From positions 1 through 64,000 of the IMG/VR virus record IMGVR_UViG_3300035698_017437: 64,000 nucleotides of DNA; one strand, 5' to 3'. Made by a program: the position numbers and the translations under genes. This document shows positions 9,768 to 48,139 of this stretch, one piece after another; the stretch's first letter is position 1, and every line of letters starts with the position of its first letter. Source of the stretch: a virus. The notes under the pieces were generated by a model. It was not told the origin of the DNA. It saw nothing but the letters and a program-made list of their open reading frames with translations, and searched no databases.

Positions 9768-10151
9768 ATGAAAAATGAACTAATAGAACATGACGGAAAC
9801 CCTTATGTTCCATCAATATATGAGAAAGATGCTGTTGCTGAGGACATAGATGATGCCAGTCAAACATACAAAACCCTTATAGAAAAGGGTGGAGAAGCAT
9901 TAGATATTGCCTTTGATATCCTTGAAGGAACGGAACATCCTAGAGCTGTGGAAACCTTCTCTGGTCTTATGAAAACAATATCAGATGTTACTTCCAAAAT
10001 GGTAGATCTTCAGATAACTAAAAAAGAGTTGGCTGGAGCTGGCGAGTCAAAATCTCCAAATGATGAAAAAACATCAAACACCCAAAACAATTTCTATGTT
10101 GGTACTCCAGCAGAACTCCAAGAATTATTAAGGAATGGCGATAATGAATGA
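9768..10151 (+). CDS. gp16: Terminase small subunit gp16
   Basis: EHPRAVE motif, NNFYVGTPAELQ C-terminus; late promoter upstream; synteny. Confidence 0.9.
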   Translation: MKNELIEHDGNPYVPSIYEKDAVAEDIDDASQTYKTLIEKGGEALDIAFDILEGTEHPRAVETFSGLMKTISDVTSKMVDLQITKKELAGAGESKSPNDEKTSNTQNNFYVGTPAELQELLRNGDNE

Positions 10152-10506
10152 TACAGGATTTAGAGGGAATACGAATCTAAAAAGATCTGGAGTAAAACAA
10201 GAATGGACAAAAAAACAGATCCTTGAATATAAAAAATCAATGAATGATCCGATTTATTTCGTAGAGAAATATATGAAAATTGTCCATATTGATAAAGGCG
10301 TTGTTCCATTCAAAATGTGGGATTTTCAGAAAGAATTGATCCAAACCCTCCATAATAATCGCTTTATTGTAGGCAAGTATCCGAGACAAACTGGTAAGTG
10401 CCTATTGTTTGAAACTGCTATAAATATACGTGATAAGAAGACGAAAGAGGTCAAACGTGTATCAATAGGAGAATTATATGAGAAAGTCAAGGAATGTGAA
10501 ATGTGA
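10135..10506 (+). CDS. gp17: Terminase large subunit N-part + split intein N-fragment (35 aa, 10399-10503)
   Basis: GNTNLKR, DPIYF, PRQTGK Walker A followed by CLLFETAINI (intein block A) then stop. Confidence 0.93.
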   Translation: MAIMNDTGFRGNTNLKRSGVKQEWTKKQILEYKKSMNDPIYFVEKYMKIVHIDKGVVPFKMWDFQKELIQTLHNNRFIVGKYPRQTGKCLLFETAINIRDKKTKEVKRVSIGELYEKVKECEM

Positions 10507-11669
10507 AATTTGTGGAATAGAGATTTCTGTATATAATATAGGAATGCATGTAAAGAAATATCATGATTGGGATCCTAAGGAATATAAACTAAAATATTTC
10601 AAGAAAGAGAAGAAAACTGTATCCTTTTGTGGAACAACTCATAAGAAGGGTATTATCAAGAGATATATTCTTGAATTTGAAAAGGCGTTAGGTAGGAAAT
10701 TATCACTTTCTGAGTTGAAATTTTATCTTATAGTAAGAACATCCAAAGGATGTAATGTTTTGATAATGAGAGATGTAATGGAGAATCCTGAGGTTGAGGT
10801 AAATGAATATGTTGATAGATATTATAGGATAATTACTTTTGAGGGTAATCCTCTTGATCCTCATTCAGGTTATATGAAACTGAGACATGGTAAAGTTTAT
10901 CATAAGAATCATATAAAAAGAATGTCTAAACAGATCAAGGGAGATAAAAATCCAGCATATCAACATGGAGGAAGGTTATCTCCATTTTCAAAAAAGTTTT
11001 TGAAAGGAGATATATCTGAACAAACGAAAGAAAAAGCAATACAGACAAAGAGAAGTAGACCTCACTCACAGAACACAAATATTGAATATTTCCTTCATAA
11101 TAAGACAAATGGTAATTGGGATCTTGCTCAACATCTTCTTTTTGAACGTCAAGCTGTAGGTAGAAAATCAAAATTCATAGAAAGATATGGAGAAGAGGAA
11201 GGCATAAAGAGATGGAAATCAAGACAAGAGAAATGGCAAACTACTCTGAAATCTAAATCTATAGAGGAAATAGCAGAAATAAACATGAAAAAGTGTTCGG
11301 CTGGTTATATTGAATCTAAAAAATGAAAAGGAATTGTTCAAGGAATTAAGGGAGAGATCTTGTAAGGATATCACAAAACAATTGAAAATCCCTTATGATG
11401 GAGTTCGTTATTTTAGTTATGATATTTCATATAAAAATAAATTGATAGAGTATAATGGAGATTTCTGGCATAGTAATCCATTATTATATGAGGAGAATTT
11501 TGTGAATCCTATAAGTAAAAGATCTGCTAAATATATTTGGAAGAATGATGCTAGAAAAAGGGATGTTGCTTTATCTAATGGATATGAGTTGCTTGTTATA
11601 TGGGAGAGTGATTATAATGATAATCCTGAAAAGGAAATACAAAAATGTTTGGAGTTTTTGAATGAATAA
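10478..11669 (+). mobile_element. Free-standing VSR/DUF559-like homing endonuclease between intein halves, frameshifted at the A6 run 11318-11323
   Basis: N-terminal C2H2 finger, ERYGEEEG repeat, C-terminal YD...IEYNGDFWH..D..K...GY..LVIWESD; removing one A joins ORFs 10478 and 11310 (SKNEKELF). Confidence 0.8.
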
Positions 11670-13416
11670 TTTATCAGATTCAATGGAAAGAAAATATATT
11701 GATTCCTTTGAGGTTGATGATTGGGAAATAGAATCAGATTCTGGCTGGATAGATATAAACTCTATATCAAAAACTATTGAATATGAAAAATTTATTATTA
11801 CTACAGAATCGGGCAAATATCTAGAATGTGCTGATGATCATATAATTTTTGATGAAAATATGAATGAGCTTTTTGTGAAAGATTGTGTATCAAATGGAAC
11901 AAAAATCATAACAAAAGATGGTCCTGAATTGGTTATATCTGTATTGAAAACTGATATATCTGAAAATATGTATGATTTATCAGTTCAAGGAGATAATAGA
12001 TTTTATTCTAATGATATTCTTTCTCATAATTCTACTACCGTTGCCGCTTATATTCTACACTATATTATATTCAATTCAGAGAAAACAGTAGCCATTCTTG
12101 CGAATAAAGCCGCAGGTGCTAGAGAGATTTTATCAAGAATTCAAATGGCGTATGAATTATTACCTGATTGGTTATCACATGGAATAAAGGATTGGAACAA
12201 AGGATCTATTATGTTAGAGAATGGATCAAGAGTAATTGCCTCGGCAACTTCTAGTTCTGCTATTCGTGGTATGTCTTTATCTATGATTCTATTAGATGAG
12301 TATGCTTTTGTTCCAAGAAATATCGCTGATGAGTTTATCAGGTCTGTGTATCCTACTATTACATCTGGTAAATATTCTAAAGTTGTAGCCATTTCTACTC
12401 CTTTTGGTATGAATCATTTCTATAAATTATGGGAAGATGCTAAAGCTGGTAGAAATGAATATGTTCCTTGTAAAGCTCATTGGCAAGATGTGCCCGGAAG
12501 AGATGAGAAGTGGAAACAAGAGACAATAAATAATATAGGAGAGGAAGCTTTCGGACAGGAAATGGCTTGCGAGTTCCAGGGCTCCTCGGGATCTTTGATA
12601 AATTCTTATACTTTGAAGAATCTATTTCATAAGATACCAATAAAAAATCAAGATTCTCTTATAATATATGAATTTCCTGAACTAGAAAGACAATATGTGA
12701 CTGTTGTTGATGTTGCCCAAGGTCAAGGATTAGATTATTCTGTAGCTAATGTTATAGATATTACATCTATGCCTTTCCGTCAAGTAGCTATTTTCAGAGA
12801 TAACACTATTGATCCTTTATTTCTTCCTGAAGTTTTATTCAATCTAGGAACTAGATATAACAATTCTTTTGTTTTAGTAGAAAGAAATGATCAAGGAACC
12901 CAAGTGGTTAATGATTTATATGAAGATTTTGAATATGATAATATAATCATGACCTCAATGAATGGGAGAAAAGGACAACAAGTTTCTGGAGGGTTCGGTA
13001 CACAAACAAGTTTAGGAGTGAAAACAACAAAACAAACAAAATCTTTGGGATGTTCAGGACTAAAATCTCTTATGGAACAACAAGAATTGATTGTTGTTGA
13101 TTTCAATACAATAGAGGAATTATCTGTATTTGTTAGAGATAGAACCAGTTATGCCGCAGAAGAAGGATATAATGATGATATTTCCATGACCTTAGTTCTT
13201 TTCTCTTGGTTAGTGAATCAAAAATATTTTAGAGAATCAATGGATCTTGATGCTAGAGCTAAACTAAGTGAAAAATATCATAAACAAATAGAAGAAGAAT
13301 TGTTGCCTTTTGGTTTTTTGAATGATGGATTAGAAGATCAAATTGATGACGAAATTGACCCAGAATTTGGAAATTCTGGAATTCAAATGCCTGGAACCCC
13401 ATTCACAAACTGGTAA
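11662..13416 (+). CDS. gp17: Split intein C-fragment (123 aa, 11662-12030) + terminase large subunit C-part
   Basis: LECADDH block B, MYDLSV, FYSNDILSHN|S splice junction; then LLDEYAF Walker B, STP.GMNHF, VDVA.G.G.DYS nuclease, DDISM. Confidence 0.95.
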   Translation: MNNLSDSMERKYIDSFEVDDWEIESDSGWIDINSISKTIEYEKFIITTESGKYLECADDHIIFDENMNELFVKDCVSNGTKIITKDGPELVISVLKTDISENMYDLSVQGDNRFYSNDILSHNSTTVAAYILHYIIFNSEKTVAILANKAAGAREILSRIQMAYELLPDWLSHGIKDWNKGSIMLENGSRVIASATSSSAIRGMSLSMILLDEYAFVPRNIADEFIRSVYPTITSGKYSKVVAISTPFGMNHFYKLWEDAKAGRNEYVPCKAHWQDVPGRDEKWKQETINNIGEEAFGQEMACEFQGSSGSLINSYTLKNLFHKIPIKNQDSLIIYEFPELERQYVTVVDVAQGQGLDYSVANVIDITSMPFRQVAIFRDNTIDPLFLPEVLFNLGTRYNNSFVLVERNDQGTQVVNDLYEDFEYDNIIMTSMNGRKGQQVSGGFGTQTSLGVKTTKQTKSLGCSGLKSLMEQQELIVVDFNTIEELSVFVRDRTSYAAEEGYNDDISMTLVLFSWLVNQKYFRESMDLDARAKLSEKYHKQIEEELLPFGFLNDGLEDQIDDEIDPEFGNSGIQMPGTPFTNW

Positions 13417-13737: not shown

Positions 13738-15720
13738 ATGCCGCTACATACCCAACTTTCACCTGGAGTTTCCTCTAGGGAGATAGACCTAACGAATATT
13801 GTACCTCAAACAGCGATCACAAATGGAGCTGTTGTTGGAGGATTCACTTGGGGTCCAGTAGATGATATTCAAACAATTAGTTCAGAAAATAAATTAGTAG
13901 ATCAATTTGGTATTCCAACAGACGATGTTTACATGCATTGGTTTGCCGCTAAGAATTTTCTGTCTTACTCAAGAAACCTAAAAGTTGTTCGTGTTGTTGA
14001 TACAACATCTGCTACTCCTGCTCTAAACGCAACAGCTATTGCTGGAGGAGAATTGATCAAAAATGAAACTGAATGGACAGATGATTATTCTTCTGGTAAT
14101 TCTGATGCTTTTGGAGTTTTTGCTGCCAAATATCCTGGCTCTCTAGGTAATGGCGTTGTTATTGAAATGGCAGATTCAGCAACATATACTTCCGTTGATG
14201 AAAGAACAATTGTTATTACTGATGCTGGTTCTGATTATACCTCAGCAGACGATCATGGAACAGTAGTAACCTTTTCAGCCCCTCCAGTGAATGGAGTTCA
14301 AGCTACAGGAACTCTAAATGTTGTTGCTGATATTGTAACTGGAATCACTGTTACAGAAGAAGGTTCAGGATATCTCGTTCCTCCTACTATCACTATTGGA
14401 CTCTCTACTGCTGGAGCATCAACAGCAACAGCAAATTCAGGATTATGGAAATATAGAGACCAATTCTTAACAACTCCTGGAACCTCAGATTATTGTGAAA
14501 GAAAAGGTGGAACAAACGATGAACTTCATATAATTATTATTGATGGATCTGGTTTATTTACCGGAGAAGCTGGTAATATAATGGAACGATTCTCTTTCGT
14601 ATCTAAAGCCTCTGATGCTATGTTTGACGATGGAACAAGAGCTTATTATGTTAATGTTCTAAGAGATAGATCAAAATATGTTTATTGGATGGATCATCCT
14701 TCTGTTGTAGATGCCACTTGGGGAACAACTGCTTCTCTAACTGATTTCGGTTCTCTTCCTCTTATTGAGAAAGCTACCCTTCAAGATGGAGTAAATGGCG
14801 AGTCTGTAACAAATAATGAACTATTCCCTGGTTGGGATATGTTCAGAAATAAAGAAGTAATTGATATTGGCGATGTAATTGTTTCCCCAACCCATCTCCA
14901 ATCAGACCAAGAAGCTAATGTTCTGAAAGATTATGTTATTCAAAATATTGGTGATATCCGAAGAGATTGTGTAGTCTTTATTTCTCCTAATCTTTCCGAT
15001 GTTGTGCATAATGTTGGAAATGAAGCCGAGGATTGTATCACAATGAGAAACGTTCTTACTTCTTCTTCTTATGCTTTCCTTGATTCAAATTGGAAATATC
15101 AATTTGATGTCCATAATGACACTTATAGATGGTTGCCTTGTTGTGCTGATATTGCTGGCATTTCTGCTAGAACCGATACTGATGCCGATCCTTGGTGGAG
15201 TATAGCAGGTTTCAATAGAGGTCACTTGAAAAATGTTGTGAAACTTGCTTGGAATCCTGATCATACCGATAGAGATGAATTATATCAAAATGGTATAAAT
15301 CCAGTGAATACTTTCGCAGGTGAAGGTACCCTACTTTACGGCGATAAAACGATGCTCACCAAACCTAGCGCCTTTGACCGCATTAATGTGCGAAAATTAT
15401 TTATTGTTTTAGAAAAGTCTATTGAGAAAGCTAGTAAATATATGCTATTTGAGTTCAATGATGAAATTACTAGATTGATGTTTGTACAAATGATTGAGCC
15501 TTTTCTCCGTGATGTCCAAGGTAGACGTGGTATCATAGACTTTCAAGTAATTTGTGATGAAACTAATAACACTCCGTATGTTGTGGATTCTAATAATTTT
15601 GTAGGGGATATTTTTATTAAGCCAGCCCGATCAATTAATTATATTTCCTTGAACTTTATCGCTACAGGAACTGGAATTGAGTTTACGATTGCTCAGGATA
15701 TGGTAAACAATACCTTGTAA
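13738..15720 (+). CDS. gp18: Tail sheath protein gp18
   Basis: LSPGV..REIDLT, F.WGPV, AKYPG.LGN, PWWS.AG.NRG, FDRINVR.LF, IKPARSINYI.LNF. Confidence 0.97.
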   Translation: MPLHTQLSPGVSSREIDLTNIVPQTAITNGAVVGGFTWGPVDDIQTISSENKLVDQFGIPTDDVYMHWFAAKNFLSYSRNLKVVRVVDTTSATPALNATAIAGGELIKNETEWTDDYSSGNSDAFGVFAAKYPGSLGNGVVIEMADSATYTSVDERTIVITDAGSDYTSADDHGTVVTFSAPPVNGVQATGTLNVVADIVTGITVTEEGSGYLVPPTITIGLSTAGASTATANSGLWKYRDQFLTTPGTSDYCERKGGTNDELHIIIIDGSGLFTGEAGNIMERFSFVSKASDAMFDDGTRAYYVNVLRDRSKYVYWMDHPSVVDATWGTTASLTDFGSLPLIEKATLQDGVNGESVTNNELFPGWDMFRNKEVIDIGDVIVSPTHLQSDQEANVLKDYVIQNIGDIRRDCVVFISPNLSDVVHNVGNEAEDCITMRNVLTSSSYAFLDSNWKYQFDVHNDTYRWLPCCADIAGISARTDTDADPWWSIAGFNRGHLKNVVKLAWNPDHTDRDELYQNGINPVNTFAGEGTLLYGDKTMLTKPSAFDRINVRKLFIVLEKSIEKASKYMLFEFNDEITRLMFVQMIEPFLRDVQGRRGIIDFQVICDETNNTPYVVDSNNFVGDIFIKPARSINYISLNFIATGTGIEFTIAQDMVNNTL

Positions 15721-15744
15721 TAAGTATAAATAGGTTATGATACA

Positions 15745-15864
15745 ATGATAAAGTGTGAGGAATAGGGTCATATTCCCGATAAGGAGTCAACCTAACTCTT
15801 TTCCTCACATCATTTTTATAATCGGATTTGGGATTGTGGTAATCAAGTTTGGGTTTTAGAATAA
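15745..15864 (+). mobile_element. Deleted endonuclease cassette (scar A): branched RNA + terminal codons YNRIWDCGNQVWVLE*
   Basis: TGTGAGGAA/TTCCTCACA stem enclosing two hairpins, then codons matching the C-terminus of the family of ORF 22053 (YRIYDCG). Confidence 0.7.
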
Positions 15865-15915
15865 GTATAAATAAGATAAACAAGAAATAATAACTTTCCA
15901 TAAAGGAGAAAATAT

Positions 15916-16422
15916 ATGAGTCTTTCCATATCAGAATTCAAAGCAAAATTGATTTCTGGAGCACGTCCAAATCTTTTCAAAGTTGAAATAGGAGAACTTG
16001 GAGCAAATCTTGCTTTTCTTTGTAAAGCTACTGAACTCCCAGGTTCCAATATAGGTGAAATAGAAGTTCCATATCAAGGTAGATCCCTAAAAGTTGCGGG
16101 AAATAGGACTTTTGACAATTGGGAGATAACAGTAATAAACGATGTTAATTTTGATATTCATAATCGGCTTATTGCTTGGATGGATAGTATCAATGCTCAC
16201 GAAGGTAATACTGGTGGTGGAGATCTTGCTTCTTATATGCGAGATGGAGCGGTAATCCAATTAGGAAGAGATGGTCAAGAGATCAAACGATATGATTTCA
16301 AAGATATTTGGCCTTCTGTTGTTGCTCCCCTTCCTCTAGATTGGGCCTCAAATGATGAACTGGAAGAGTTTCAATGTACTTTCACCATCGGTTCTTTTTG
16401 GGCTTCAGAGCAAACTAGTTAA
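15916..16422 (+). CDS. gp19: Tail tube protein gp19
   Basis: GARPNLFKV, FLCKA.ELPGS, GR.LKVAG.RTF..W..TVIND. Confidence 0.96.
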   Translation: MSLSISEFKAKLISGARPNLFKVEIGELGANLAFLCKATELPGSNIGEIEVPYQGRSLKVAGNRTFDNWEITVINDVNFDIHNRLIAWMDSINAHEGNTGGGDLASYMRDGAVIQLGRDGQEIKRYDFKDIWPSVVAPLPLDWASNDELEEFQCTFTIGSFWASEQTS

Positions 16423-16432
16423 AGTAAAATAT

Positions 16433-16524
16433 ATGAGGGCTTAGGGACTTAAGCCTGAAAGGTGATAATCCATCACTTGCCCTCATTTATATTGGGATTG
16501 TGGTAATCAAGTTTGGGTTTTATA
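16433..16524 (+). mobile_element. Deleted endonuclease cassette (scar B): branched RNA + codons WDCGNQVWVL*
   Basis: ATGAGGGC/GCCCTCAT stem with two inner hairpins; 31 bp TTGGGATTGTGGTAATCAAGTTTGGGTTTTA identical to scar A. Confidence 0.7.
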
Positions 16525-16540
16525 AAAACGAGGAAATAAT

Positions 16541-18175
16541 TTGAATATTTTTGGTTGGGAAATAAACAAGACTGATTTTGAGGAAGAGGTCCCAGAATCT
16601 CAAAACAGAGTTGATTTAGAATCTGATGGTTCTATGGATATTGTCTCCGCTGGTGGTCAAATGGTTTCTTATTTGGAAGACCATATTCCCCAAGAAGAAA
16701 TAGAACAAATTCTAACATATAGAAAAATTGCGTCTTATCCTGAAGTTGATAGAGCTATAACAGAAATTGTAGGAGATGCCGTTACTGTCAATGAAGACAA
16801 TGAGCCATTTCCTGTAAAATTGAATATGGATAATTGTGAAAAACTATCTGATAATATCAAAGAAAAGATAAATGATGAATTCAAAGAAATTCTTTATATG
16901 TTGAATTTTGATAAATTTATGGGAAAATATTTCCGTAAATGGTATATAGATTCTAGAATAGGGTTTCATCTTATTATAGATAAAAATAAAATGAAAGATG
17001 GTATTCAAGAAATAATTCAATTGGATTCTACTCGCCTAAAGAAATATAGAAAAATTGAAAAAGAAAAAAATGCGGAGGGTGTTGAGGTTGTAATATCTTC
17101 TAAAAATTATTTTATATATTTCCCAAAAGAGAATTGGGAACATAATCAAATATCTAACGTCAAATCATATCTAACAGCAAAAAATGTATTAAGGTTTGAG
17201 GAAGAAGTTATCACCTATGCGGATAGTGGTTTATTAGATGAAAATGATAACACAATATCTCATTTATATAAAGCAATTCGTCCAGCAAATCAATTGAACA
17301 TGTTAGAAGATGCTTTGGTTGTATATCGGCTAGTAAGAGCACCTGAGAAAAGAGCAATATATGTTGATGTTGGTTCATTACCCGCTCAAAAAGCAGAACA
17401 ATATCTTGCTAATACCATGAACAAATATAAGAATAAAATTTCTTATGATTCTAAAACAGGTAAGGTTAGGAATGGTACAGATGCTCTCTCAATGACTCAA
17501 GACTATTGGTTGGCTCGCCGGGAAGGTGGAAAAGGAACAGAAATAACAACTCTTTCTGGTGGAGAGAATCTTTCCCAAATTGAGGATGTTATATATTTCA
17601 GAAAGAAATTATATGAATCTTTGAATGTTCCTTCTTCAAGAATGGAATCAGAGACAATGTTTTCTCTAGGTAGAGAAGGTGAAATAACAAGAGATGAAGT
17701 CAAATTTTCTAAATTCATTACAGATCTAAGGAATTATTTCGGTTATTCTATCTTCAATGATATCCTAAGAAAACAAGTTATCCTTAAAAAGATTATGCGA
17801 ATTGATGAATGGAATAAAATAGAAAAGAGTATTTTATATGATTTCATTGAAGATTCCCATTTTTCTGAGATGAGAAATCTTGAGGTAATAAAGTCAAGAT
17901 TAGAAGTGTTGGATGGAATGAATGATTATGCTGAAGATTATTTTTCAAAGACAATGATTAGGAGAGAAATCCTCAATCAAACAGAAGAAGAAGTTACAGA
18001 TTTGAAAAAAGAACGAGATGAAGAATCTAAAGATCCAGAAGAAAACTCTATTGAAGATATGCCCATAAGGGGACAAAGTGAACCTGAAATAGAAGAGCCT
18101 GAAGAGCCTGAAGAGCCTGAAGAGCCCGAAGAGTCCGAAAACAATCCTAACGAGGTCCCTAAAGATGAAAAATAA
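16541..18175 (+). CDS. gp20: Portal protein gp20
   Basis: FRKWYIDSR, ANQL.MLEDALVVYR..RAPE, DYWL.RREGGKGTEITTL.GG, ITRDEVKF. Confidence 0.97.
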   Translation: MNIFGWEINKTDFEEEVPESQNRVDLESDGSMDIVSAGGQMVSYLEDHIPQEEIEQILTYRKIASYPEVDRAITEIVGDAVTVNEDNEPFPVKLNMDNCEKLSDNIKEKINDEFKEILYMLNFDKFMGKYFRKWYIDSRIGFHLIIDKNKMKDGIQEIIQLDSTRLKKYRKIEKEKNAEGVEVVISSKNYFIYFPKENWEHNQISNVKSYLTAKNVLRFEEEVITYADSGLLDENDNTISHLYKAIRPANQLNMLEDALVVYRLVRAPEKRAIYVDVGSLPAQKAEQYLANTMNKYKNKISYDSKTGKVRNGTDALSMTQDYWLARREGGKGTEITTLSGGENLSQIEDVIYFRKKLYESLNVPSSRMESETMFSLGREGEITRDEVKFSKFITDLRNYFGYSIFNDILRKQVILKKIMRIDEWNKIEKSILYDFIEDSHFSEMRNLEVIKSRLEVLDGMNDYAEDYFSKTMIRREILNQTEEEVTDLKKERDEESKDPEENSIEDMPIRGQSEPEIEEPEEPEEPEEPEESENNPNEVPKDEK

Positions 18176-20572: not shown

Positions 20573-21919
20573 ATGTTGACTGTAGAACAGATTAACGAAA
20601 AATGGACCGATATTATCAATGAAGAGGAAGCTCCAAAAATTGATGATTCTTACCGTAAAAAAGTAACTGCTATAATTCTTGAACAACAAGAGAAAGTAAC
20701 TCTTGAAGAAGCGGGATTGATCAATGAAGCTCCAACTAATATTGCTGGCACCTCCGGTAATGGAGCTATTTCTAATTATGATCCTATCCTTATTTCTCTA
20801 GTTCGTAGAACTTTTCCAGTTTCTATTGCTTTTGATATCTTTGGCGTTCAACCAATGAAAATGCCTACTGGTCTTATCTTTGCGATGAAATCCAAGTATG
20901 CCGATAATGCTGATCTTAAATTAGCATCTGAAGCTCTTCATAATGAAGCAAATACAGGTTGGAGTGGAAACTCTGATTTTGATGGTGGTTCTGTATTTGA
21001 TGGAACAGGAAATGCTCCTAATGATCAAGCAGCCGCTGATATTGCTCTTGATGCTACTACTGCTCCTAATCCTTGGACAGTAAATAGTACAACTTATGGT
21101 GTTGGAACAGGTTATACTACTGCTGAAGCTGAACTTTTAGGTGATGCCTCTGGTACTGCTTGGAAAGAAATGGGCTTCTCTATTGAGAAGAAAACTGTTG
21201 AAGCTAAATCCAGAGGACTGAAAACCTCTTGGACTGTAGAAATGGCTCAAGATCTTAAGTCTGTTCATGGTCTGAATGCTGAAAGTGAGCTTGCTAATAT
21301 TCTTTCTAACGAGCTTACTGCTGAAATGAACCGTGAAATGGTTCGCAGATGTATGATCATGTCTAAACCTGGTGCTCAAACTGATACCACAACTCCTGGT
21401 GTTTTTGACCTTGATGTAGATTCAAATGGTCGTTGGTCTGTAGAGCGTTTTAAAGGTCTTATGTTTCAGATTGAACGAGATGCTAACGCTATTGCTATAG
21501 ATACTCGTAGAGGTAAAGGAAACTTTATTATCACTTCTGCTGATGTTGCTTCTGCTCTTGCAATGACTGGACTGCTTGATTCAAATCCAGCTTTCTTGAA
21601 TGGAACGGTAGATGTTGCGTCTAGTTCATATGTTGGTGTTCTGAATGGAACGACTAAAGTATTTGTTGATCCTTTTGTAACTTCTAATGGTGTTCTTGTT
21701 GGATATAAAGGATCCTCTCCGTATGATGCGGGCGCGTTTTATTGTCCTTATGTACCTTTCACGATGTACAAAGCTACTGGTGAAGATACCTTTCAACCTC
21801 GCATGGGTTTCAAGACTCGGGCAGGGTTCACAGTAAATCCATTTGTTAGTCTTACTGATGATATTGTAGCTTCCAATAATCCTTATTACAGGAAATTTGC
21901 TGTAGAGGGATTAATGTAA
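20573..21919 (+). CDS. gp23: Major capsid protein gp23
   Basis: DPILISLVRR, GVQPM..PTGLIFA, EMGFSIEK, E.AQDLK.VHGL.AE.EL, YDAG.FYCPYVP, FQP.MGFKTR. Confidence 0.98.
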   Translation: MLTVEQINEKWTDIINEEEAPKIDDSYRKKVTAIILEQQEKVTLEEAGLINEAPTNIAGTSGNGAISNYDPILISLVRRTFPVSIAFDIFGVQPMKMPTGLIFAMKSKYADNADLKLASEALHNEANTGWSGNSDFDGGSVFDGTGNAPNDQAAADIALDATTAPNPWTVNSTTYGVGTGYTTAEAELLGDASGTAWKEMGFSIEKKTVEAKSRGLKTSWTVEMAQDLKSVHGLNAESELANILSNELTAEMNREMVRRCMIMSKPGAQTDTTTPGVFDLDVDSNGRWSVERFKGLMFQIERDANAIAIDTRRGKGNFIITSADVASALAMTGLLDSNPAFLNGTVDVASSSYVGVLNGTTKVFVDPFVTSNGVLVGYKGSSPYDAGAFYCPYVPFTMYKATGEDTFQPRMGFKTRAGFTVNPFVSLTDDIVASNNPYYRKFAVEGLM

Positions 21920-21951: not shown

Positions 21952-21990
21952 AGCTCCCATAGAGATTTATTTCTTTATGGGAGCTTTTTT
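21952..21990 (+). terminator. Intrinsic terminator after gp23
   Basis: AGCTCCCATAGAGA...TCTTTATGGGAGCT + T-tract. Confidence 0.85.
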
Positions 21991-22052
21991 AGGTTGACAA
22001 TAATGAGAATTTATGATATAGTTGTATAACCAATATAAAGAGAGGATTTATA

Positions 22053-23735
22053 ATGACAGAATATATTCACATAAAAAACAAACCCATATCTAAGGATCAC
22101 TTGATTTATCTTTGGGTAGAGATGGAAATGTCTTTAGATGGAATAGGAAGGTTATTAGGAGTGAGAGGTCCAACAATCAAGGATCATTTGAAGAAAAATG
22201 ATATTTATGATTTGAGAGATTTCAATAAAAAGGTAGTAGATATACCAAAACAGAAATCTCAAGAACAGGAAATATTTGAGAAATTATATAATATTGACGG
22301 ATTGAGTATGATGGAAATATCCAGAAAGTTGGGAATGTCTAGAAAAATGGTTAAGTATAGGTTATTAAATTATGATCTAATAGATTCCTCTATTGATGCT
22401 AGATCTAGCAGGAAAATAGAAATATCAAAAGCTGATTTAGATTTTCTCTGGAATGAAAAAAAGATGGACTTTTCACAAATATCATCATTGTTGGAAGTTG
22501 GATCGGCATTAATAAAAAAGAGACTTTTAGAGTATGATATAATTGATAAGGATTTCAATCCTAGAAATCGGAATAGAAAAGGTACAAAAGAAGTCCTCTT
22601 CCATTTGTGGAATAAAGGACATTCAATGAAAGAAATCTGTAAAGAGATTGGAATAGGCAGGGAACTATTAAAGTCTGAATTGAAAAAATATGATATAATT
22701 GATCAAGACTTTCAAGGAACATTTATTGATATTGGTACTAAAGATGATTTAACTTTCTTGTATATAGAAAAGGTATTATCGGTGAGAGAGATTTCCGTAA
22801 TGATGGAAGTAGCAAAGTCTACTGTTATCGGAAGACTAAAGGGATATGATCTATGGGACTTACGACCACATGATAAGGGTAGGTCCGAATCAGAGATAGA
22901 AGTATCTGATTTCATAAAGAGTATATACAAAGATAAAGTGTTGGATAATGATAGGAAAGCTATAAGTCCTTTGGAATTAGACATATATCTTCCAGAGAAA
23001 AATTTTGCTATTGAGTATAATAGATTATATTGGCATTCAGAACTTTATAAAGATAAGAATTATCATTTAGATAAAACTTTAGCATGTGAAAAGAAAAATA
23101 TTCAATTATTCCATATTTTTGAAGATGATTGGAGAGATAAATCTGAAGTAATAAAACGTAAATTGAAATATTTATTATGTGGACATAGTAAAAGAGTTTA
23201 TGGGAGAAAGTGTGTTTCTAGAAAGATAAATTCTAATGAAGCTTCAGAGTTTTACAATAAACATCATATTCAAGGAGGCAGGTCTTCTCTGTTCTCTGTT
23301 TCATATGGTCTTTATTATGAGAACGAATTAGTATCTGTACAATCATACAAAAGGATGAAAGATAAATGGGATTTATGTAGATTTGCTACATCATACTCTG
23401 TTATTGGAGGATTTTCTAAATTATTGAAAGTTTTTGTGAAGGAGTATAATCCAGAATTTATAACATCTTTTGGCGATCTTACTTTGATAAATAGGAAATC
23501 TAATGTATATATTTCTTGTGGATTTGAAGAGGAATATGTTACTTCACCAGATTATAAATATATAGTGAATAACGAAAGAAGACATAAATTCGGTTTTAGA
23601 AAAAATAAATTAGAAAAAATGTTTCCGATGTATGATATAAAAAAATATACAGAGAAACAAATTTGTTATGAAAATGGATTGTATAGAATTTATGATTGTG
23701 GTAAAATCAAATATAAACTAAACCTTGTGGAATAA
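22053..23735 (+). mobile_element. Hef-like free-standing endonuclease (HTH repeats + DUF559/VSR-like nuclease + conserved C-domain)
   Basis: About five helical repeats; ELDIY.PE..AIEYN.LYWHS..YH..K...L.HIFEDDW; C-terminal H.QG, L.RFA, GGFSKL, RIYDCG; own promoter TTGACA-17-TATAGT at 21994. Confidence 0.85.
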
Positions 23736-24276: not shown

Positions 24277-24305
24277 TTGACATTTTATTGGTTATATGTT
24301 ATAAT
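24277..24305 (+). promoter_or_regulatory. Sigma70-type promoter (similar sites at 21994, 27039, 33429, 37118, 39798, 48070, 52924)
   Basis: TTGACA-17 bp-TATAAT, often with TG extension. Confidence 0.8.
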
Positions 24306-48060: not shown

Positions 48061-48139
48061 TTTTTTTTGTTGACATTATATTCCTAAAATGTTATAAATA
48101 TAAATATAAATATACAAATTTAACCTTAAAAGGAATATC

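Follow-up and report, generated by a model that had tools for sequence, protein, structure and literature searches.

The question raised by this locus is what the two spacers on either side of the tail-tube gene gp19 of an uncultured T4-like myovirus contain, and what left it there. The window analysed here is the first 64 kb of a linear 141,960-bp IMG/VR record (IMGVR_UViG_3300035698_017437; ~78% complete by a tool estimate; 32.7% G+C), which appears to be of salt-lake origin, with matching contigs in four 'salt lake metagenome' runs. In both the gp18-gp19 and the gp19-gp20 spacer a hairpin core is followed by the same 31-mer, and these units are referred to as element 1 (e1) and element 2 (e2). 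Free-standing homing endonuclease genes are major drivers of T4-type phage mosaicism; to our knowledge, what such genes leave behind after their decay is poorly catalogued. The account favoured here is that each spacer beside gp19 probably carries the scar of a free-standing Hef-like homing endonuclease cassette behind a terminator-like hairpin, and that the hairpins have been kept as structures.

The 31-mer TTGGGATTGTGGTAATCAAGTTTGGGTTTTA is present in two exact copies whose starts are 664 nt apart (Table 1), in agreement with an earlier note on this DNA, made from the sequence alone. No further copy was found in the 64-kb window when up to 3 mismatches were allowed (0 in 100 shuffles), nor was a third copy of its 26-nt core detected in the whole record. 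Around the pair, identity extends to 35/37 nt. The same note had read the repeats as the last codons of a deleted Hef-like endonuclease, and both its translations, YNRIWDCGNQVWVLE and a stop in e1, and WDCGNQVWVL and a stop in e2, and its family assignment have stood up to profile searches. These searches were based on the family of the intact endonuclease encoded at 22053 in the same genome, which comprises 4,071 proteins with E <= 0.001 among 4,969 candidates, 120 of them listed, under source names such as 'Hef-like homing endonuclease' (P0108) and 'DUF7487 domain-containing protein' (P0063). Four of the 120 listed homologues have fewer than 7 residues past the motif and were left out; the other 116 went into a 25-column C-terminal profile, which was scored with filters off against the 7,754 six-frame stop-to-stop peptides of at least 10 residues in the whole genome. 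The intact gene came first (E 1.7e-13), and the spacer peptides of e1 (15796-15861, E 2.1e-6) and e2 (16469-16522, E 0.014) ranked second and third, the next best peptide having an E of 0.75. The e2 score rests wholly on the 31-mer that it has in common with e1, and is thus no independent evidence.

A second profile of 300 columns, made from 53 unique genes encoding NRIWDCGN, matched e1 at positions 282-298 (E 8.8e-7) and e2 at positions 289-297 (E 0.1). It revealed no other endonuclease fragment in either spacer, hairpin regions included; the nuclease core and the DNA-binding modules that lie upstream of the motif are absent from both, and what is left are remnants, not genes. Both remnants match the family C-terminal motif ...(Y/N)RI(Y/W)DCG(N/T/K)xx(Y/W)..., and their stops fall 7 (e1) and 6 (e2) residues past DCG, within a family range of 6-23 with a mode of 8-9; among the 120 listed homologues a distance of 6 is seen in 4 and a distance of 7 in 5. 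The e1 peptide, whose frame is closed upstream by a TAA at 15793, is similar to the ends of IMG/VR genes such as GYNRIWDCGNDVWVWSS. Because the spacer peptides rank second and third in the C-terminal profile search, there is good support from sequence comparison for regarding the 31-mer, with 11 nt more on its upstream side in copy 1, as the 3' end of the coding sequence of a lost Hef-like homing endonuclease. Two other roles were considered and rejected: as a sigma-70 promoter the 31-mer scores under the promoter scan threshold, and the remnants do not supply a ribosome-binding site for the downstream genes, as the gp20 GAGG and the gp19 signals lie outside them.

With regard to the identity of the lost gene, the intact 22053 gene ends in ...GLYRIYDCGKIKYKLNLVE and a stop, and the 11 nt GATTGTGGTAA are the sole overlap of its 3' end with the 31-mer. 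Since the nucleotides of this intact paralogue share only GATTGTGGTAA with the 31-mer, the lost gene was a different family member, of the '...NRIWDCGN...' subtype, and the 22053 gene is its paralogue, not its parent. The motif NRIWDCGN is encoded by 114 IMG/VR stretches. A search for the parent itself with the exact 26-mer gave 0 matches in IMG/VR, and a degenerate WDCGNQVW coding pattern gave 0 matches in IMG/VR and 0 in the GTDB species genomes.

The spacers that hold these remnants are long. The gp18-gp19 spacer measures 195 nt and the gp19-gp20 spacer 118 nt; in distant relatives, for which 20 loci were compared, several of them the same contig from two collections, the former is 4-46 nt (measurable in 11 of 20 rows) and the distance from gp19 to the next open reading frame (ORF) is -1 to 68 nt (16 of 20 rows). 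Both spacers thus appear, by this comparison, to carry insertions, of ~141 nt after gp18 and ~95-100 nt after gp19. A 14-mer, AATAAGTATAAATA, occurs only twice in the genome, on the two flanks of e1, and removal of one repeat together with the DNA between (141 nt) would leave a spacer of 54 nt. Each 14-mer holds a stop codon and the box TATAAATA, which resembles a T4-type late promoter. No comparable repeat flanks e2, where at most ~5 nt (TAAAA) can be matched by eye. Its 5' edge coincides instead with the 12-mer AAAATATATGAG, present in exactly two copies in the 142-kb genome, the other being at the start region of gp19 (15909-15920), and this 12-mer may mark the recombination joint that made the second element. 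A microhomology model for the deletion was tried on the basis of the 8-mer TTTATAAT, which is found both ahead of the intact gene's start and at the e1 junction; with 22 and 26 occurrences per strand it is weak and is set aside as speculation. As a separate observation, three overlapping tandem TATAAATA boxes are found at 48093-48112 (TATAAATATAAATATAAATA).

The hairpin cores of the two elements, each with a T-rich tail after it, are homologous, and their divergence is confined to loops and compensated pairs. In a MAFFT alignment, the 52-nt cores align ungapped with 29/52 positions identical (56%), and TTTATA and the 31-mer are in register, with e2 being without 14 nt between them. Only 5 of the 283,818 genome windows match the e1 core at 29/52 or better, the e1 and e2 cores among them, and no others do so for the e2 core. 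Inverted repeats mark the closing stems of both (I4, 15754-15768/15795-15809, in e1; I5, 16426-16440/16479-16493, in e2). Each core has the three-way layout that the note had stated, a closing stem with two inner hairpins. In e2 the three-way junction with last loop AAUCC is the minimum free energy fold of the RNA (-24.3 kcal/mol, z -4.4, 0/200 shuffles as good). For the RNA of the e1 core a rod-like hairpin is optimal (-16.1 kcal/mol), and the three-way form with last loop CAACCUA lies 2.9 kcal/mol above it (-13.2 kcal/mol), although the latter is the optimum with DNA parameters. RNAalifold on the ungapped core alignment returns the three-way form with 16 pairs, 5 of them compensated on both sides and 0 broken.

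Across the 58 columns of the core 27 differ, 19 of which are unpaired and 8 paired, the 8 making up 4 whole pairs that are still complementary (permutation P 3e-4); one-sided pair changes between the cores number zero. Pairing falls from 100% to 46-57% when the partners are slid by 1-3 columns. The observed covariation score was reached by 31 of 500 column shuffles, a test in which two sequences give little power. Because all 8 changed paired positions fall in compensated pairs, the hairpin structure seems to have been under selection since the copies diverged. A covariance model built from the 58-nt core (R1) was run against the whole genome and the loci of 14 relatives and recovered e1 and e2 alone (next best E 0.44), and for this reason the hairpin is regarded as a two-copy element and not as a general terminator motif of the salt-lake phage. 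The best Rfam match, 21.8 bits against a gathering score of 43 (E 0.31), is at chance level. Additionally, it was observed by eye that the loops AACCU (hairpin 15783-15799, e1) and AAUCC (hairpin 16461-16477, e2) can each form 5 pairs with a GGGUU of the 31-mer (15851-15855 and 16515-16519, respectively), a possible pseudoknot.

The arrangement proposed for these spacers, an endonuclease gene behind a hairpin, has parallels elsewhere. The intact 22053 gene, together with the terminator and promoter directly upstream of it, is the intact form of this layout. The hairpin there is not of the e1/e2 type, for which the region upstream of the gene was found negative; an ordinary terminator with a sigma-70-like promoter occupies the place instead. 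Among full-length relatives, 21 of 54 have an unusually stable fold (z below -2) in the upstream 100 nt, compared with 11 of 54 interior controls, both figures being biased low by the mononucleotide shuffles used; a hairpin followed by an endonuclease gene is therefore a common layout. A perfect TTGACA-17-TATAAT with an upstream TG was also seen just past the gene that follows 22053, within 24277-24305.

The loss of such genes by internal deletion can also be followed elsewhere. Of the 114 NRIWDCGN matches, 80 loci were surveyed for decay, a search anchored on the 3' motif that cannot show a 3' bias. Frames of at least 363 aa are present at 67 of them, 7 are short at a contig end and 6 are short within the locus. 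One of the latter keeps only the last ~30 codons at the 3' end (L052); in another (L077:2315-2645, an IMG/VR contig), the last 20-31 codons follow, out of frame, on an N-terminal DNA-binding module of ~95 aa (E 6e-15 to P0089); a third keeps two endonuclease pieces, with a small 3'-end remnant (L073). Two are frameshifted (L041, L065) and one is 5'-truncated (L103). Internal-deletion decay of Hef-like genes thus recurs in other phages, with endpoints that vary.

Taken together, the favoured account would begin with one or more endonuclease genes that once stood directly behind terminator-like hairpins after gp18 and gp19, like the 22053 copy behind the gp23 terminator. The full-length form of the lost gene would end in ...NRIWDCGNQVWVLE. 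Long direct repeats on both sides of an essential gene would not be stable, and the reading frames would have been lost by internal deletion, as in L052, L073 and L077, while the hairpins would have been retained for a structural function. The second element could be a local copy of the first, made after its collapse, or the remains of another copy of the same gene, and the 31/31 identity could reflect a recent common origin or gene conversion between copies 664 nt apart. The most plausible role of the hairpins would be that of intercistronic terminators, attenuators or 3'-end stabilisers, keeping the very abundant sheath and tube messages apart from that of the low-copy portal gene.

Several observations weigh against this account. 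The terminator scan calls neither hairpin, as the loops are too large, and the T-runs that follow are short; the e1 fold is modestly better than its shuffles (z -2.5), and a late-promoter-like box (15725) just upstream of e1 is an odd placement for a terminator. The covariation was counted on the same two sequences that defined the structure. The R1 hairpin gave nothing convincing beside 80 related endonuclease loci (best E 0.1), and because it is not found beside any other endonuclease gene, it may have arrived with the cassette or may be native to the spacers. Furthermore, the 31-mer is 31/31 identical and the adjoining core 29/52 (Fisher p 2e-6), a contrast not expected if one scar had been duplicated and had then decayed neutrally. 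It calls for a further explanation, the candidates being gene conversion, coding ends that share an origin in the very recent past, and constraint at the level of sequence. Lastly, no close relative exists (best gp19 identity 41%) in which the two junctions could be inspected for alleles of the empty, full or mini kind.

Since constraint on the 31-mer is among the candidates for this contrast, readings in which the element is a co-opted signal or is mobilised in trans stay alive, each with a small share of the probability. According to the first of them, the hairpin is kept for its structure and the 31-mer for its sequence, the two forming an RNA or DNA signal (an operator or a processing site) before gp19 and gp20, with the endonuclease origin being merely historical. 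Compensated changes only, beside an invariant 31-mer, are the pattern expected of a structure joined to a sequence-specific site; both copies lie in the same distance class upstream of gene expression signals, and the possible pairing of both hairpin-2 loops with the 31-mer would fit as well. Nevertheless, there is no relative from which conservation could be judged, the rest of the genome and Rfam contain nothing of the kind, and the downstream contexts differ, a late-promoter-like box following e1 and the gp20 ribosome-binding site following e2. The identity of the 31-mers could equally come from gene conversion, and we consider this reading unlikely.

Somewhat more doubtful is a non-autonomous mobile element, in which the hairpin and the 3' codons would be cis-acting ends and the mini-element would be copied by trans-homing, for instance via a 22053-like enzyme. 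This is close to what the earlier note had proposed, namely two cassettes collapsed to the same ends in the manner of miniature inverted-repeat transposable elements (MITEs), with the hairpin as defined 5' end and the 3' coding end as a cis signal throughout the family. Two homologous copies at intergenic sites that are short in relatives would agree with it, as would the near-identical T-run/coding-end junction in both copies, the far better conservation of the 31-mer compared with the rest of the element, and the T4 precedent, in an excerpt of PMC2790892, of a defunct endonuclease element mobilised in trans by an active neighbour. Notwithstanding, the elements exist in only two, adjacent copies 664 nt apart in 142 kb, and no dispersed copies were found in the genome beyond the pair, in the 14 relatives' loci or in the pattern scans of IMG/VR and GTDB, where the exact 26-mer (IMG/VR) and the WDCGNQVW pattern (both collections) are absent. 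They have no terminal inverted repeats, the only inverted repeats being the internal stems I4 and I5, and no target duplication of constant length, the exact 14-nt repeat around e1 standing against at most TAAAA, by eye, around e2. No autonomous partner sharing both ends was identified either, as the intact 22053 gene lacks the hairpin and has 11 nt of the 31-mer in common, and the 80 related loci also lack the hairpin. Moreover, synonymous codon use within NRIWDCGN equals the same-gene background in 57 unique full-length relatives (GAT 43/57 vs 0.77; TGT 50/57 vs 0.75; GGT 24/57 vs 0.40), so that the family motif carries no nucleotide-level signal, and deletion endpoints differ among the decayed copies of other phages, which speaks against movement of the family as a unit whose ends are fixed. 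By themselves the elements are not mobile at present, and MITE-like mobility is not supported. What was found largely corresponds to the outcome that the earlier note had named as contrary to its proposal, a one-off local duplication or random endpoints, with the caveat that, within the pair, conservation of the 31-mer far exceeds that of the hairpin.

Less probable again is that hairpin and 31-mer form a functional two-part cis element that has outlived its gene, either as a Hef-like recognition site copied in trans or as PeSL-like repeats that make promoter and gp19 an exchangeable 664-bp module; if this were true, the 31/31 identity and the compensated hairpin would reflect purifying selection and not recent conversion. 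That a locally duplicated, non-coding 31-mer translates by mere chance like an endonuclease C-terminus is very improbable, for although the match is short (10-15 residues) and that of e2 depends wholly on the 31-mer common to e1, two different profiles give E values of 2e-6 and 9e-7 corrected for 7,754 peptides, the match lies at the extreme C-terminus of the profile with a stop at a family-typical distance, NRIWDCGN is the same as the motif in 114 IMG/VR stretches, and an intact paralogue is present in the same genome.

Table 1. Features of the gp19 locus and its surroundings, in positions of the window.
Feature	Position	Strand	Details
Terminase gene gp17	11662-13416		
Sheath gene gp18	13738-15720		Stop 15718-15720; Pfam family match
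14-nt direct repeat, left copy	15719..15732	+	AATAAGTATAAATA; overlaps gp18 stop; TATAAATA box 15725-15732
e1 structured core	15753..15810	+	Closing stem 15756-15762/15801-15807 (UGAGGAA/UUCCUCA), weak inner hairpin 1, inner hairpin 2 (GGAGU-CAACCUA-ACUCU); 70.5 bits
T-rich linker	15811..15816	+	CATTTT running into TTTATAAT; terminator-like tail between e1 hairpin and coding remnant
e1 remnant	15817..15864	+	Last 15 codons and stop, YNRIWDCGNQVWVLE; C-terminal profile positions 11-25 of 25
31-mer copy 1	15828..15858	+	Exact repeat search
14-nt direct repeat, right copy	15860..15873	+	Holds e1 remnant stop and TATAAATA box 15866-15873, 50 nt upstream of gp19 start
Tail-tube gene gp19	15916..16422	+	PF06841, E 6e-7; an element on either side
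12-mer	16426..16437	+	AAAATATATGAG; 5' edge of e2; identical to gp19 start region
e2 structured core	16431..16488	+	Closing stem 16434-16440/16479-16485 (UGAGGGC/GCCCUCA), inner hairpin 1, inner hairpin 2 (GGUGAU-AAUCC-AUCACU); 72.8 bits
31-mer copy 2	16492..16522	+	Exact repeat search; ends 7 nt ahead of GAGG of gp20 ribosome-binding site
e2 remnant	16493..16525	+	Last 10 codons and stop, WDCGNQVWVL; C-terminal profile
Portal gene gp20	16541-18175		TTG start; Pfam family match
Major capsid protein gene	20573-21919		
Terminator and promoter	21952..22022	+	Canonical terminator (14-bp stem and T-run), then TTGACA-17-TATAGT (11/12); directly upstream of 22053 gene; terminator/promoter scan
Intact Hef-like homing endonuclease gene	22053..23735	+	560 aa; phrog_3339 'homing endonuclease', E 7e-103

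The phage itself is isolated in the databases. A megablast search for close relatives against 50,697 phage records gave no match, a blastn search for distant ones matched short pieces within gp19 only, and the gp19 protein has no match over 41% identity in IMG/VR and the JGI metagenomes; the closest cultured relatives of the portal protein are cyanomyophages, at 42% identity. Among the runs listed as carrying the sequence none is of RNA. Logan contigs of the four salt-lake runs show zero differences from the window where they overlap it, element sequences included. These contigs break at the 31-mer, as those of a k-31 assembler would, and no joints are seen. In one of the runs (X1), Logan unitigs start or end at both 31-mer copies (15829-15857 and 16493-16521), and one unitig of another run (X2) starts at copy 2, which is expected of a 31-mer de Bruijn graph. 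Assemblies of this phage could lose or mis-join gp19 at the 31-mers.

Upstream of the sheath gene, the large terminase gene is apparently interrupted (10135-13416). An ORF of 123 aa (10135-10506) corresponds to the terminase start up to ...PRQTGKC and is followed by ORFs at 10478-11326 and 11310-11669, the second of which encodes a Vsr/PD-(D/E)XK-like nuclease (PF18741, E 2.5e-4; Hef-type profile, E 0.0013). The following ORF, of 584 aa, has a weak N-terminal match to intein splicing (PF14890, E 6e-5, below the cut-off) before the terminase domains. The arrangement resembles a terminase that contains an intein or split intein together with free-standing nuclease genes.

With regard to its wider meaning, the case is at present a well-documented curiosity and not a new mechanism. 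It belongs to a known kind, the scars left by decay of homing-endonuclease cassettes, and has one feature that is truly odd. Such a scar can be recognised from only 10-15 terminal codons via the C-terminal profile of the family, and internal-deletion derivatives of this type are met with repeatedly in other phages. If the cassette brought the hairpins with it, selfish endonuclease genes would supply new regulatory hairpins between cistrons, in the most conserved region of the phage genome; if the 31-mer is constrained, it would be a first hint of a cis-acting end in intronless homing.

Among known systems, MITEs resemble the elements in being short non-coding derivatives that keep sequence from the end of an 'autonomous' cassette and occur in more than one copy. 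They differ from them by their terminal inverted repeats, constant target duplication, autonomous partner and transposase-type mechanism, all of which are lacking here, where there are two copies only. The comparisons that follow draw on excerpts of the sources cited. PeSLs are terminator/promoter composites around movable cassettes in T4-type phages (PMC2839356, PMC4122927). The elements share with them the small intergenic composite, with a stem-loop, putatively of terminator type, between a stop codon and the signals of the next gene, and the direct-orientation repeats that are a potential recombination substrate to insert, delete or circularise the bracketed DNA. The flanks of e1 itself are a 14-nt repeat of 'stop plus promoter box'. 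However, a strong sigma-70-like early promoter is part of the definition of PeSLs, which in the excerpts lie mostly in hyperplastic regions among non-essential genes, whereas the elements described here lie in the core virion module and carry endonuclease codons. No sigma-70-like promoter above the scan threshold was found at 15811-15865 or 16488-16530 on the + strand; the best candidate by the hairpins, TTGTGG-17-TAGAAT or TATAAA, has 8/12 matches by eye. As to the stem-loop, stable hairpins with short T-runs are present, neither called by the terminator scan. The composite before the 22053 gene was itself seen to be PeSL-like.

Hairpins also control the T-even endonuclease genes I-TevI, I-TevII, I-TevIII and segB, as well as mobE of Aeh1 (PMC2988022). 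As in these genes, a late-promoter-like box is followed by a stable hairpin just upstream of the presumed start of the lost endonuclease frame, and a Shine-Dalgarno-like GAGG is paired with CCUC, here in the closing stem. Unlike in the T-even leaders as the excerpt describes them, the GAGG belongs to the 5' arm, at ~45 nt from where the frame would have begun, the whole promoter box is upstream of the hairpin, and the start codon and reading frame are deleted. In T4, the defunct I-TevIII is trans-homed by MobE (PMC2790892), so that a defunct element can spread if an active endonuclease cuts nearby; in the present genome the active Hef-like gene is located ~5.5 kb away.

The nearest counterpart is the life cycle of homing endonucleases, in which genes that have become fixed degenerate or are deleted (PMC2988022). 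No description of paired scars of hairpin and terminal codons was found in the open-access literature searched. As with the free-standing seg, mob and hef endonucleases of T4-type phages in the same source, a selfish gene between conserved phage genes appears to have been lost after fixation, with an intact paralogue elsewhere in the genome. Compared with the decay phase as presented in that excerpt, the scar described here is tiny and has two parts, a hairpin and the last 10-15 codons; it is present twice, around one essential gene, and it combines compensated changes in the hairpins with identical coding tails.

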